NCBI GenBank assembly: GCA_035574035.1
Contig: DATLZL010000216.1
Span: 1 to 32,737, forward strand
Direction: 5' to 3'
Source: Candidatus Binatia bacterium
GTDB taxonomy: Bacteria > Methylomirabilota > Methylomirabilia > Rokubacteriales > CSP1-6
DNA length: 32,737 nt
Positions 19,450 through 27,395 of this stretch are shown in pieces. The number at the start of each line of letters is the position of its first letter. Within the stretch, counting starts at the first letter, position 1. Below the pieces are notes generated by a model. That model ran no database searches and was not told the origin of the DNA. It was given only the letters and a program-made list of their open reading frames with translations. Both the position numbers and the translations under genes were made by a program.

Positions 19450-20958
19450 TCAGGCCGCATCCTCCGCGAATGCCTCCTCACGTCTGGCGCGGACGGCTGG
19501 CAGCGTCACCGCCACCAGGGCTGCCAGCGCCAGCAGGAGCATCGCCGCGCTCAGCGGACGCCGGAGGAAGACGGTGGGGTCTCCTCGCGATAGCAACAAC
19601 GCCCGTCGCAGGTACTCCTCCATCATGGGCCCCAGGATGAACCCAAGGAGCATTGGCGCCGGCTCGCAGTCGAGCCGCGCACAGGCGTAGCCGAACACCC
19701 CGAACAGCGCCATGAGGTAGACGTCGATGACACTGTTGTTCAACGTGAAGACCCCGACCGCGCAGAATGCCAGGATGGTCGGGTAAAGCGCGTGATACGG
19801 AACCCGGACGAGCCGCACCCACACCCCGATCAAGGGCAGGTTCAGCACCAGCAGGAACATGTTGCCGATCCACATGGATGCGACAACGCCCCAGAACAGG
19901 TCCGGCTGCTCCTTCGTCACCGCGGGACCCGGCTGGATTCCGTGAATGACCATTGCCCCTACCATGAGGGCCATCACCGGGTTGCTGGGAATCCCGAGCG
20001 TCAGCATCGGGATGAATGAGGTCTGCGCCCCTGCGTTATTGGCTGCCTCCGGGCCGGCCACACCCTCGATCGCGCCCTTGCCGAACTCCTGTCTGAAGCG
20101 AGACGCCTTCTTCTCCAACGAGTATGATGCGAAGGACGCCAGCGTCGCCCCGCCGCCGGGCAGGACGCCGAGGACCGAGCCCAATGCGGTCCCCCGGAGG
20201 ATCGGAGCCGCCATCCGCTTCCAGTCCTCCCGCCTGGGCATCAGGCTCGTGATCACCGGCACCGCGCCCGCCGTTGTTTCCCGCTCCACGTTCCTGGCCA
20301 CCTCCGCGAGACCGAACATCCCCATGGCGACCACCACGAACCCGATGCCGTCCGACAATTCGGCCACGCCCAGGGTGTACCGCTGGACTCCCGAGTTCAC
20401 ATCCGTTCCCACCAGGCCGAACAGCAGGCCGGTCACCGTCATGGCGATCGCCTTCAGGGGCGACCCGTGCGCGAGCACCACGGCCGCGATCAACCCCAGC
20501 ACCATCAGCGAGAAGTACTCCACCGGCCCAAACCCCAGCGCCAGGTTTCCCAGGGGCGGTGCAGCCACGGCCAGGACGAGCGTGGCCACGGTCCCCGCGA
20601 AGAACGAGCCGATGGCCGCCGTCGCCAGGGCCACGCCGCCTCGCCCCTGCCGCGCCATCAGGTGGCCCTCGAGCGCCGTGACCACAGACGACGTCTCCCC
20701 GGGCAGGTTCACGAGGATGGCCGTGGTCGACCCCCCGTACTGCGCGCCGTAGTAGATTCCCGCGAGCATGATCAGGGCCGCGGCTGGTGGCAGCGTGAAG
20801 GTCGCCGGTAGCAACATCGCGATCGTGACCACCGGCCCGAGTCCCGGCAGTACGCCGATGAGCGTCCCCAGCGACACGCCGATCACGCAGTAGAGCAGGT
20901 TCCCGGGGGCGAGCGCCGACGCCAGCCCTAGGCTGAGGTGGCTCCACAGGTCATGCAT
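19450..20958 (-). CDS. tctA: Tripartite tricarboxylate transporter, large permease TctA
   Basis: ATG (MHDLWSHL) lies 1 nt after the tctB stop. Family-typical sequence: GVSLGTLIGVLPGLGPVVTIAMLLP..YYGAQYGGSTTAILVNLPGE.. Confidence 0.9.
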   Translation of the reverse strand: MHDLWSHLSLGLASALAPGNLLYCVIGVSLGTLIGVLPGLGPVVTIAMLLPATFTLPPAAALIMLAGIYYGAQYGGSTTAILVNLPGETSSVVTALEGHLMARQGRGGVALATAAIGSFFAGTVATLVLAVAAPPLGNLALGFGPVEYFSLMVLGLIAAVVLAHGSPLKAIAMTVTGLLFGLVGTDVNSGVQRYTLGVAELSDGIGFVVVAMGMFGLAEVARNVERETTAGAVPVITSLMPRREDWKRMAAPILRGTALGSVLGVLPGGGATLASFASYSLEKKASRFRQEFGKGAIEGVAGPEAANNAGAQTSFIPMLTLGIPSNPVMALMVGAMVIHGIQPGPAVTKEQPDLFWGVVASMWIGNMFLLVLNLPLIGVWVRLVRVPYHALYPTILAFCAVGVFTLNNSVIDVYLMALFGVFGYACARLDCEPAPMLLGFILGPMMEEYLRRALLLSRGDPTVFLRRPLSAAMLLLALAALVAVTLPAVRARREEAFAEDAA

Positions 20959-20959
20959 G

Positions 20960-21421
20960 TCAGTGCCCAAGCCCGGGGCCGAGAATCGGCATGGGCAGCC
21001 CGAGCAGCTTCACGAAGACCAATACGCTGAAGGCCGCCAGCGCGCCCGCCAGCGCCAGGGCCGTCCGCCAGGAAAATCGGCGGCTTGCCCACGAACTCAC
21101 AACGACCAGCACAACGAGCGCTGGCACCACACCCGTCCGGCGCACCAGAACGCCGAACAGCAGCGTCGCAACCGTGATGACCGCGAGCGGCACGAGGGTC
21201 AGGCGACCCACGGGCGCGCCGCGCACCGCGAGCGCCCGCAGCGCCAGCACCCCGCCCAAAACCGCAAGAAGCCCGCCGAGCACCAAGGGGAAGTAGGCGG
21301 GCCCCATCCGCGTCGCGGACCCCATCGGATGATGCCGGACCAGGAGCACTGCGGCAACTCCCAGGCCGGCAAACATGACGCCGGCCCAGAAATCCCTCGG
21401 CGCCCGGATCGTACCGCCCAC
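20960..21421 (-). CDS. tctB: Tripartite tricarboxylate transporter, small subunit TctB
   Basis: 153 aa with a GTG start and four predicted hydrophobic helices. It sits between tctC and tctA. Confidence 0.8.
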   Translation of the reverse strand: MGGTIRAPRDFWAGVMFAGLGVAAVLLVRHHPMGSATRMGPAYFPLVLGGLLAVLGGVLALRALAVRGAPVGRLTLVPLAVITVATLLFGVLVRRTGVVPALVVLVVVSSWASRRFSWRTALALAGALAAFSVLVFVKLLGLPMPILGPGLGH

Positions 21422-25747: not shown

Positions 25748-26703
25748 CGCTCGTCCCCCTCGCACCCGGTACGGGCACGCCGCGCCCCGCGCCGCACAAG
25801 CTCCCGGTACCTTTCCTCTCCGACCCGCACGTAGCGGTCGAGGTACTTCTCATACGCATCCGGCCTAGTGCCCGCTTCCACGTACGCGCGTAGGTGCCCC
25901 TCGTCGGGGTCGTACAGCGTGTGACTTCCCGTCGGGTGGGCGCCTCGCGGACACTCGACCACGGCGGTCACCAGGTACGAGGGCAACTTCGTCCGTTCGG
26001 GCACCCGCCGGATGGTCCGGGTTGGGACCAGACGGTCGACGCTCACAACGACGCGCCGCGCGGCCATGGCCAGCAGGGGGTCGAAGAACGCGCCACCCAG
26101 CAGTTGCGCGTTCCCGTACTCGTCAGCCTGCTGGGCGTGGACGAGTACGACGTCCAGGCGGATCGGCGGAACGGCGAGCAGGCGACGGCCGTCTACTGCC
26201 GGGAGGGGTCGGTACCACTCCGGGTTGACCCGCGGCAAGTCCGTTCCCACGTCGAAAATCGGCACATACGGCAGGCCGTCCGCTGCGGCCCGGAGCCCGG
26301 CGGCCAGTCCGGGTCCATCCATCTCCAGCACCTGGAGCGCCCCGGACTCGCTCCGGCGGCGGAAGTTCGGCGCAAATCCTAGGTGCTCGAACGTGATGAA
26401 GACGCAGAAGACCCGCGAGACCGAACCCGCGCCGATCAGCAGGTCGGGGCCGATGCTTCCCGGCGCCGGCACGAGCGTCAGGTCCCGTCGGCCCGCGCGC
26501 GCCAGGGCCCTCACCAGAGCCATGGGCGTGTTGTAGAAAATCCACCCACCCAGCCCCACGGTGGCGCCGTCCTCCACGAGCCTCACCGCATCATCCAGTG
26601 TCACGACCTTCCGACGCCGGACGGACAAAGGCCTCCCGACAGTACCCTCCGATTCGGCCGCAGGACCGGCGCCGCGAGCCCCGAGCGTACCGTGCGGATT
26701 CAT
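25744..26703 (-). CDS. Class I CoA-transferase, subunit A
   Basis: ATG at 26701-26703 overlaps the gntR stop as ATGA; a GTG at 26712 is an alternative start. Sequence: LDDAVRLVEDGATVGLGGWIFYNTPMALVRAL...VHAQQADEYGNAQL. Confidence 0.75.
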   Translation of the reverse strand: MNPHGTLGARGAGPAAESEGTVGRPLSVRRRKVVTLDDAVRLVEDGATVGLGGWIFYNTPMALVRALARAGRRDLTLVPAPGSIGPDLLIGAGSVSRVFCVFITFEHLGFAPNFRRRSESGALQVLEMDGPGLAAGLRAAADGLPYVPIFDVGTDLPRVNPEWYRPLPAVDGRRLLAVPPIRLDVVLVHAQQADEYGNAQLLGGAFFDPLLAMAARRVVVSVDRLVPTRTIRRVPERTKLPSYLVTAVVECPRGAHPTGSHTLYDPDEGHLRAYVEAGTRPDAYEKYLDRYVRVGEERYRELVRRGARRARTGCEGDER

Positions 26704-27395
26704 GTGCGCCACGACCGCCGCCGCGCTGTCCCGCGCAGCAACTGCTGGACTTCGATGATGTGGCGCCTCAGCTCCCGCTTCGCCGCGCGCCCGTTGCCGG
26801 TCAGCAGATGATTCAGGATCGTCCGGTGCGATGTGTGGGTGGCCGTCGACAGGCGCCGCGAACTGCCGACCTTGGTCAGCATGGGCTCGAAGATGTCCAG
26901 CAGCGCCCGGATCAGCAGTGGGTACACCGGGTTGCCTGTGGCCTCCGCGAGCTGGACGTGAAACTCGAAGTTCGCTCGGGAGCTCGCCACCAGATTCCCG
27001 GCCTTGAAGTCCGCCGTGGCGCGATCGATGGACTCCAGGATCCTGCGGAGCGCGGTCTTCGGCGGCTTGGCGGCCAGCGTATCGACGATGAGGGCCTCCA
27101 GGCCCAGACGGACCTCGGTGACCTGCTCAAGGGTGAACTCGCCGAAGCGCAGGAGGTCCGAGAGCGAGCGCGTCACCGCCTTGGTGTTGCGCATCTCCAC
27201 AAAGGCGCCGCCGCCCTTGCCTGGCCGGATGCGGATCAGGCCGCCCTGCTCCAGCACGCGCAGCGCCTCGCGGATGGCCCCGCGCCCCACCTGGAATTGC
27301 CGCACGAGTTCCCGCTCGGCTGGCAGCCGGTCCCCCTGACGGTAGCCCCCGTCCAGGATCGCCGCGCGCAGGTGTTCGACTACCTTCTCGAACAC
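26700..27395 (-). CDS. GntR-family regulator with FadR/FCD-type C-terminal domain
   Basis: 231 aa with a GTG start. wHTH: [46 protein letters not shown]. It is the first gene of the cargo operon. Confidence 0.9.
   Translation of the reverse strand: MFEKVVEHLRAAILDGGYRQGDRLPAERELVRQFQVGRGAIREALRVLEQGGLIRIRPGKGGGAFVEMRNTKAVTRSLSDLLRFGEFTLEQVTEVRLGLEALIVDTLAAKPPKTALRRILESIDRATADFKAGNLVASSRANFEFHVQLAEATGNPVYPLLIRALLDIFEPMLTKVGSSRRLSTATHTSHRTILNHLLTGNGRAAKRELRRHIIEVQQLLRGTARRRSWRT

Follow-up and report, generated by a model that had tools for sequence, protein, structure and literature searches.

A GctAB-like protein pair apparently lacking the canonical catalytic residues recurs beside an acyl-CoA dehydrogenase in a bacterial gene cassette

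We analysed a 32,737-nucleotide (nt) stretch of DNA, hereafter the window, from Candidatus Binatia bacterium (assembly GCA_035574035.1, contig DATLZL010000216.1, positions 1 to 32,737). It contains an operon of eight genes, which encode a GntR-type regulator, two proteins related to the subunits of class I CoA-transferases (A and B), an acyl-CoA dehydrogenase (ACAD), a family III CoA-transferase (CaiB) and the components of a tripartite tricarboxylate transporter (TTT). Judging from alignments, the A/B pair lacks the catalytic residues of GctAB and of IpdAB, and it belongs to a clade that is conserved and under selection. The gene set is a conserved, recurrent and uncharacterised cassette of Alpha- and Betaproteobacteria and of metagenomes. 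We propose, with a probability of about 0.55 and by analogy with characterised relatives, that a carboxylate would be taken up, activated by the family III enzyme and desaturated by the ACAD, and that A/B, an enzyme derived from a transferase, would then decarboxylate or cleave the resulting enoyl-CoA.

The eight open reading frames (ORFs) lie at 19450-27395, all on the minus strand. In order of transcription they are:

26700-27395, minus strand: gntR, GntR/FCD-family transcriptional regulator, first gene of the operon (Pfam GntR 63.7 bits, FCD 66.3 bits)
25744-26712, minus strand: A, GctA/IpdA-like alpha subunit with the motif E-M-D-G-P-G (Pfam CoA_trans, PF01144, 110 bits)
24863-25765, minus strand: B, GctB-like beta subunit with S-G-P-L-G in place of the catalytic Glu (Pfam CoA_trans 53 bits)
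23733-24875, minus strand: ACAD, acyl-CoA dehydrogenase of the short-chain/butyryl-CoA type (three ACAD Pfam domains)
22455-23702, minus strand: CaiB, family III (CaiB/Frc/SUGCT-type) CoA-transferase (Pfam CoA_transf_3, PF02515, 360 bits)
21456-22430, minus strand: TctC-family periplasmic solute-binding protein (Pfam TctC 230 bits)
20960-21421, minus strand: TctB, small membrane subunit (Pfam TctB 57 bits)
19450-20970, minus strand: TctA, large membrane subunit, last gene of the operon (Pfam TctA 524 bits, full length)

All eight products gave strong, near full-length Pfam matches, and the coordinates agree with the ORF listing. Both bear out the eight-gene minus-strand block and the gene identities given in an earlier, model-generated reading of the same DNA (the original prediction).

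Catalytic residues of the A/B pair

In GctB, Glu54 is the catalytic nucleophile, and AibB has Cys56 at the same site (PMC7756340). When B was aligned with GctB (1POI_B) and AibB (5MZW_D) using HMMER, the stretch S-G-P-L-G fell opposite V-E54-S-G of the former and Cys56 of the latter. MAFFT gave the same register: actinobacterial homologues that bear the Glu (from Saccharopolyspora, Nocardia, Amycolatopsis and Streptomyces, ∼35% identity) show Y-ESGV in the catalytic column. All 12 clade members of B have SGP(L/G)G there, with S61-G62-P63-x-G65 invariant. The nucleophile that class I transferases carry in the (S)ENG/ESG motif of the beta subunit is absent from B. In structural terms the pair conforms to class I, with the CoA_trans fold in both subunits and adjacent genes; the Pfam CoA_trans match of B is confined to profile positions 100-216, the C-terminal half.

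Turning to A, Gly133 aligns, with both HMMER and MAFFT, with the sole residue that differs between the IpdA structures 6CO6 (Glu) and 6COJ (Ala). We take this residue to be Glu105, reportedly found essential in IpdA by Crowe et al. in 2018. At the Glu105 column A reads E-M-D-G and AibA E-H-D-G, such that Gly133 aligns with the Gly of AibA. The D-G-P of this motif is invariant in 25 clade members.

These alignments indicate that A/B is devoid of the catalytic residues of GctAB and IpdAB alike and is not a canonical class I CoA-transferase; because the beta-subunit Glu is absent, CoA transfer by the class I mechanism is unlikely. The original prediction had counted two mechanistically different CoA-transferases in the operon and supposed that one might recycle CoA from the product. 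Both ideas are undercut by the missing beta-subunit nucleophile, whose absence is invariant across the clade.

Other parts of the active site can be compared with AibAB, in which the backbone NH of Gly134B contacts the enolate and Cys56 is dispensable (PMC7756340). The residue of B that aligns with Gly134B, G142, is invariant and lies within R-G-P-G-x-x-G. In the B clade the Cys56 column holds Pro or Gly, and the column of Glu72B falls in a one-residue gap of B that adjoins a mostly conserved Asp79. Among solved structures, A matches IpdA best (6CO6, 6COJ and 6CON, 143-153 bits), followed by GctA (1POI, 104 bits) and AibA (5MZW, 103 bits), while B matches GctB (88 bits), AibB (81 bits) and IpdB (44-51 bits).

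Conservation of the pair and its wider radiation

Mean column identity is 71% for B (12 sequences) and 68% for A (25 sequences), and dozens of polar residues are invariant. The closest homologues, on a metagenomic locus designated L058, are 81% (A) and 85% (B) identical by BLAST, and comparison with them yields dN/dS values of 0.15 (A) and 0.12 (B) at a dS close to 1. Since both genes are under purifying selection, they have not decayed; A/B represents a conserved, selected clade. The original prediction had raised the prospect of a decayed or non-catalytic paralogue without its active-site residues. The residues are indeed missing from one of the two transferases, but conservation and selection speak against decay.

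A profile of B, searched against 1.84 billion representatives, retrieved 2,925 related clusters. Among the 119 full-length clusters within the best 150 of these (P0123-P0272), 95 show neither Asp nor Glu in the catalytic loop, and 21 retain the Glu. With 95 of 119 lacking an acidic residue, B is part of a large and living radiation of GctB-like proteins without the Glu. Frequent Glu-less loop motifs in these clusters are S/A/C-G-G-S-G. Several of the best 150 clusters are A-B fusions of about 550-600 residues. Most of the Glu-less clusters are presumably annotated as CoA-transferase subunits. Of the Glu-less relatives of GctAB, only the decarboxylase AibAB and the hydrolase IpdAB have been characterised.

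A recurrent cassette

Homologues of A with 55-81% identity occur in Variovorax, Polaromonas, Rubrivivax, Bradyrhizobium, Rhodopseudomonas, Reyranella, Desertibaculum and many metagenomes. We called and clustered genes after adding 80 further metagenomic loci; 41 loci were informative, with flanks of 3 kb or more on either side of B. In 37 of the 41 an ACAD gene is no more than three genes away from B, most often nested as B-ACAD-A (21 loci), otherwise as a divergent fused double ACAD (14) or a single nearby gene (2); four loci have no ACAD within this distance. Within six genes of B, a family III transferase is found in 31/41 loci and a GntR gene in 34/41. TctC is nearby in 24 informative loci and parts of ABC transporters in 10.

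Individual loci show how the set is rearranged. On the basis of Pfam neighbourhoods, L058 carries A-B-ACAD behind GntR and an ABC importer, and another locus has an AMP-ligase followed by A-B-ACAD, near CaiB-TctCBA. In Rhodopseudomonas palustris and Variovorax the double ACAD is divergent from GntR-B-A-CaiB, and in Reyranella (locus L060) the order is B-ACAD-A-GntR-TctC. Some loci that have no adjacent family III gene have an AMP-forming ligase in its stead. Because one or the other accompanies most loci, a separate activating enzyme is usually supplied.

The ACAD, CaiB and TctC of the window are 61-79%, 56-71% and 52-68% identical, respectively, to their cassette counterparts, and on the strength of these identities we regard them as orthologues. 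The window deviates from the common form in its order (A-B-ACAD), in having TctBA beside TctC and in its location on an island. TctB adjoins the cassette only in the window and in one JGI contig; most related cassettes have TctC alone. The gene combination, described as unusual in the original prediction, is therefore recurrent, in Alpha- and Betaproteobacteria as well as metagenomes. The neighbourhood search suggested there did recover the cassette, B-ACAD-A being the commonest order and TctBA beside the cassette rare.

Accessory genes differ from locus to locus and include those for crotonase, SDR, thiolase/DUF35, P450, Rieske, LigB and FerA-like ligase proteins, a range too variable to name a substrate. 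This variability suggests that the cassette is a shared lower module into which several upstream routes feed. A literature search on the cassette, on Glu-less class I transferases and on the carrier organisms together with 'glutaconate CoA-transferase' returned nothing relevant.

The dehydrogenase, the family III transferase and the transporter

The ACAD was compared with NCBIfam models and solved structures. Its best NCBIfam scores, all below cut-off, are with AcrC (425, cut-off 640) and cyclohexanecarbonyl-CoA dehydrogenase (405, cut-off 650); the model for non-decarboxylating glutaryl-CoA dehydrogenase, NF045552, gives 268 against a cut-off of 470. Its best match in the PDB is 3PFD (416 bits), whereas glutaryl-CoA dehydrogenases give 168-229 bits. 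These PDB matches mark it as a plain homotetramer-type short-chain enzyme, and the NCBIfam and PDB scores together uphold the view in the original prediction that it is a generic short-chain ACAD rather than a glutaryl-CoA dehydrogenase. The motif F-E-G-T-N-Q-I-Q is present, and its Glu364 is invariant in 25 orthologues. From what is known of MCAD and SCAD, we take Glu364, within (Y/F)-E-G-T, to be the catalytic base.

The family III protein spans positions 1-365 of the 366-position profile PF02515. Its Asp175 aligns with an Asp in all five of the best solved relatives (4ED9, 9BR7, 9BR6, 10UH and 4HL6), which include YfdE, SUGCT and a formyl-CoA transferase. The catalytic aspartate of this family is Asp169 in Frc and Asp173 in YfdE. 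In YfdE the aligned residue is 193 of the chain, corresponding to Asp173 if the tag is 20 residues long, an assumed length. By these alignments the family III enzyme appears to be the only enzyme of the operon with an intact transferase nucleophile. Its scores fall far below the cut-offs of the NCBIfam equivalogs of formyl-CoA, succinate-glutarate, mesaconate and carnitine type, with ∼207-222 bits for the Frc, succinate-glutarate and mesaconate models. Solved proteins separate just as little, with 195 bits for SUGCT (9BR7) and 193-194 bits for YfdE and the formyl-CoA transferase. We also considered a racemase, judging by the motif only, and set it aside: a His/Asp pair at the AMACR-type position is lacking, and the best matches are all transferases.

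The original prediction had likened the family III and ACAD genes to the gcdH-gcoT module of Pseudomonas. At the level of families this holds, since in GcdH-GcoT, as with human SUGCT, a family III transferase adjoins an ACAD, and SUGCT (9BR7) is nominally the best solved match here. Beyond that the likeness fails: the score with the NCBIfam succinate-glutarate model is 212 where 750 is the cut-off, and the ACAD is not a glutaryl-CoA dehydrogenase. CaiB/CaiA and GcoT/GcdH show the same pairing of family III activation with ACAD desaturation; here it is joined to an AibAB- or IpdAB-like enzyme derived from a transferase.

TctC, TctB and TctA are all full length and stand in the canonical order of TctCBA transporters, making up a complete tripartite system. 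The nearest solved relatives of TctC are the terephthalate-binding TBP (208 bits), BugD, BugE, TphC and AdpC, proteins that bind terephthalate, aspartate, glutamate or adipate. Because these acids are so diverse, the TctC ligand cannot be inferred from them. The nearest neighbours of TctC, CaiB and ACAD gave no consistent substrate, and no equivalog cut-off was reached, in keeping with the earlier judgement that the substrate cannot be called from sequence. It is likely to be a di- or polycarboxylate.

A proposed pathway and its alternatives

In the pathway that we propose, the TTT system would import a carboxylate, a role assigned at the family level, and the family III enzyme, by means of Asp175, would form the CoA thioester, with succinyl-CoA, for instance, as the donor. 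The short-chain-type ACAD, with its Glu364, would introduce a 2,3 double bond. As a fourth step, A/B would process the ACAD product by enolate chemistry on its retained thioester-binding scaffold, without CoA transfer, and the product would then pass to the beta-oxidation of the host. We favour cofactor-free decarboxylation of a glutaconyl-type enoyl-CoA for this step, in the manner of AibAB, and place hydrolytic or retro-Claisen C-C cleavage in the manner of IpdAB second. We infer the chemistry of all steps and the order of the third and fourth, while gene content, residues, cassette conservation and the island are observed. Uptake, CoA activation and desaturation had already been predicted for this self-contained module, and the import components and the intact Asp175 and Glu364 are in accord with that.

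Several features lead us to favour decarboxylation of the AibAB type: A has Gly at the Glu105 column and shares the E-x-D-G motif with AibA, no general base would be needed, and the reaction would fill a gap in the operon. Neither Pfam nor NCBIfam placed any of the eight products in a hydratase, lyase, thiolase or decarboxylase family, and A/B may itself supply the decarboxylase or lyase that the original prediction found wanting.

AibAB of Myxococcus xanthus (5MZW-5N03), a homologue of GctAB without the Glu, acts as a decarboxylase of 3-methylglutaconyl-CoA (PMC7756340). It resembles A/B in lacking the beta-subunit Glu, in the E-x-D-G of its A subunit and in the Gly at the position of Gly134B, and Asp79 of B places an acidic residue next to the Glu72B column. 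The two differ in that the matches reach only 103 and 81 bits and that Cys56 of AibB corresponds to Pro or Gly here. Furthermore, AibAB is biosynthetic, serving isovaleryl-CoA formation, and its genes are linked with mvaS and with that of an MDR-type reductase rather than with ACAD, family III transferase and transporter genes. As far as sequence goes, the likeness of A/B to AibAB is structural, and a likeness in function is only proposed. AibAB is genetically linked to AibC, an enzyme that works on an enoyl-CoA/acyl-CoA couple, and this is reminiscent of the coupling between A/B and the ACAD.

A number of observations weigh against the proposed pathway. With summed A and B scores of 192 bits for GctAB, 184 for AibAB and 204 for IpdAB, the clade is about equidistant from all three, so no analogy is privileged, and the chemistry of the clade rests wholly on analogy. 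The ACAD does not particularly resemble glutaryl-CoA dehydrogenases, which weakens the case for glutaconyl-type decarboxylation. A family III gene is missing within six genes of B in 10/41 loci, and L060, with B-ACAD-A-GntR-TctC only, would fit A/B as the activating enzyme. Some loci have a crotonase gene directly upstream of B, or SDR and thiolase genes nearby, and so A/B may act elsewhere in a longer beta-oxidation. Finally, a substitute acidic residue may be present at the active site, candidates being Asp132 of A, which is invariant, and Glu31 and Asp79 of B. Complex prediction for A and B with the ACAD partner returned a score of 0.00, which bears neither for nor against a complex.

A bolder extension of this proposal, which we hold only tentatively and think rather more apt to be wrong than right, is that A/B and the nested ACAD form a two-enzyme unit in which the enoyl-CoA is made and then either decarboxylated, as by a 'split' decarboxylating dehydrogenase, or cleaved. 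Such a unit would constitute a third functional class of the GctAB superfamily, besides those of AibAB and IpdAB, and a new and widespread route for a soil carboxylate.

Of the alternatives, the one that survives best, although we consider it unlikely, is that A/B is an IpdAB-type hydrolase acting on a cyclic or beta-keto enoyl-CoA, the substrate being an alicyclic or a terpenoid- or steroid-derived acid. The cholesterol-cleaving IpdAB, which opens its ring hydrolytically (PMC6678751), is known from Mycobacterium tuberculosis and Rhodococcus jostii (6CO6, 6COJ, 6CON). It is a catabolic enzyme derived from a transferase, and its substrate is an enoyl-CoA bearing a distal carboxylate. The similarity of A to IpdA, its best solved relative (143-153 bits, compared to ∼104 for GctA and AibA), and the steroid- or terpenoid-like accessory genes of some loci are the reasons that we rank IpdAB-like cleavage second for the A/B step. 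Many loci carry P450s, fused double ACADs, DUF35 with SCP-x-type thiolase, MaoC hydratase and SDR genes, an assortment typical of the degradation of bulky or branched acyl-CoAs. However, Gly takes the place of the essential Glu105, and B is nearer to GctB and AibB (88 and 81 bits) than to IpdB (at most 51 bits), its weakest match. The window shows no KstR2-type context for steroid rings C/D, and its island holds only these eight genes, with no hydratase, dehydrogenase or thiolase of their own for such a route and a plain short-chain ACAD.

Somewhat less probable still is that A/B remains a CoA-transferase, by way of another Asp or Glu or of the distal carboxylate of the substrate through a cyclic anhydride. 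In that case two functional transferases would be present in the operon, one activating the substrate and the other passing CoA from the product to new substrate. GctAB of Acidaminococcus fermentans (1POI) does share with A/B the two-subunit CoA_trans fold, adjacent genes and similar subunit sizes (104 bits for A, 88 for B). The thioester-site motif R-G-P-G-x-x-G and several acidic residues are invariant in the clade, and in about a quarter of informative loci, L060 among them, no other activating enzyme adjoins A/B. Set against this, the class I mechanism needs the beta-subunit Glu, which gives way to S-G-P-L-G here and is missing in every clade member, and neither of the two characterised Glu-less relatives is a transferase. 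Unlike GctAB, A/B is also accompanied by an ACAD and a separate family III transferase, and in most loci that transferase, or a ligase, would make a second one redundant.

It is very improbable that A/B is a catalytically dead leftover, or that it serves only a structural or regulatory role in a pathway made up of the TTT system, the family III transferase and the ACAD, because the loss of both sets of canonical catalytic residues and of a Pfam match to the N-terminal half of B is set against strong purifying selection, dozens of invariant polar residues, two intact frames, an ACAD linkage conserved over Alpha- and Betaproteobacteria and metagenomes, and a living radiation in which 95/119 of the nearest full-length clusters also lack the acidic residue.

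Operon junctions

The gene junctions were recomputed and agree with the original prediction, which had listed two ATGA overlaps, one 13-nt overlap and gaps of at most 34 nt. The GntR/A junction is ATGA if A starts at ATG 26703, overlapping the gntR stop codon, and the A/B junction is ATGA if B starts at ATG 25747. The overlap is 13 nt between B and ACAD and, given a TTG start, 11 nt between TctB and TctA; the intergenic gaps are 24-34 nt. No terminator signal above chance was detected inside the operon. The start of A is likely to be either ATG 26703 or TTG 26628, the latter giving 294 residues, a length typical of its homologues; that of B is likely to be ATG 25747.

The B frame has a C-terminal extension of ∼30 codons (24863-24960) beyond the point where its homologues end in '...L-R-R'. 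This tail is of low complexity, rich in Arg, Thr and Pro, and reads into the ACAD start, which it overlaps by the 13 nt given above. In L058, unlike the window, the B stop codon directly abuts the ACAD start. The tail looks like the result of a stop codon displaced within a former spacer.

The genomic island and the origin of the cassette

The operon lies on an island of 11.2 kb, bounded by a perfect 43-nt direct repeat of the 3' end of tRNA-Cys. Its boundary features are as follows.

17816-17858: distal att repeat, a duplicated 3' part of tRNA-Cys (perfect 43-nt match to 29056-29098)
28069-28863, plus strand: partial tyrosine-integrase ORF at the tRNA-proximal end of the island (Pfam Phage_integrase 63 bits, residues 110-257 only)
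29056-29098: proximal att repeat (43-nt direct repeat) inside the intact tRNA-Cys (29056-29130)

The GC content at third codon positions (GC3) is 0.80-0.90 in the operon and 0.82 in the integrase-domain ORF, compared to ∼0.96 in neighbouring host genes. Together with the tRNA-Cys repeat and the partial integrase, this contrast supports the earlier designation of the operon as horizontally acquired island cargo. The flanking stretches of the island, screened by codon-position GC only, show no coding signature except for the integrase ORF. In the 1.6 kb between the distal att repeat and tctA (17859-19449), no ORF has host-like or operon-like codon-position GC, and GC3 is ∼0.65 in all frames, consistent with degraded island genes.

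The host assembly contains no close paralogue of any of the eight proteins, identities not exceeding 53%, and among 40 genomes of the same family or order the best matches to A are at most 45% identical. Identity between the window TctA and the other TctA proteins of the host reaches no more than 51-53%. The assembly is ∼83% complete, and the window has a GC content of ∼70%. The host is probably Methylomirabilota- or Rokubacteria-like, its GltD being 81-84% identical to proteins of MAGs that bear these names. About ten TctA and nine TctC genes are present in the host genome, roughly one to one; expansions of orphan TctC, by contrast, typify the Burkholderiales.

The best named matches to A come from Variovorax, Polaromonas and Rubrivivax. 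L058, which has the closest A/B pair, is a JGI metagenome contig (Ga0484958_002034) from a very near relative of the host, its flanking genes being 91-100% identical to the host contigs C214, C487 and C309. This locus carries a different, second cassette: the closest A-B-ACAD trio stands behind GntR and a Liv-type ABC importer and is followed by genes for a Rieske oxygenase, SDR, LigB, Amidohydro_2, CMD and a family III transferase and by a transposase remnant. The L058-type cassette is absent from the host assembly at the completeness given above.

CaiB and TctC of the window are nearest to the Variovorax type and the ACAD to the nested type, which suggests that the cassette is a mosaic. An origin in the Burkholderiales, to which the best named matches to A had pointed, was considered and rejected as unproven, given that the A/B clade occurs in only 2 of 201 sampled Burkholderiales genomes, that the closest A/B pair belongs to a near relative of the host and that the cassette appears mosaic.

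A TGA-containing A paralogue

Outside the window, a host contig (C121; L151:3118-3972) encodes a GctA/IpdA-like paralogue that is ∼42% identical to A. It contains a single in-frame TGA exactly at the Glu105 column of IpdA, reading 'C-L-D-H-S-U-P-G-L'. Genomes of the same family or order, namely G024, G011, G012, G015, G008, G007, G002, G021, G005 and others, also have the TGA-containing paralogue. The host has selA and a selD that itself contains TGA. A 7-bp GC hairpin begins 18 nt 3' of the TGA (fold z = −2.0). The B partner on C121 has a deletion at the Glu loop of GctB, and no related genes surround the pair, its neighbours encoding an ABC-2 exporter, PMT and BacA. This A-like family is not in the table of prokaryotic selenoproteins in a 2026 review. 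The paralogue is a candidate for a new selenoprotein family, with selenocysteine predicted at the catalytic position.

Significance

In databases, members of the A/B clade go by the names 'CoA transferase subunit A/B' or 'glutaconate CoA-transferase', and in reconstructed pathways they are assigned the activation step. Should they not be transferases, a catabolic cassette that recurs in soil bacteria has been misread. Cassette loci are found in Variovorax, Rhodopseudomonas, Reyranella and many metagenomes, and close homologues of A in Bradyrhizobium. Culturable carriers exist, and the nested B-ACAD-A order offers a pairing that can be tested. Were the proposed pathway correct, A/B would represent another recruitment of the GctAB scaffold for enolate chemistry. 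Should the two-enzyme unit also prove true, the Glu-less radiation, at 95 of 119 clusters, would be a reservoir of mis-annotated acyl-CoA enzymes that are not transferases.

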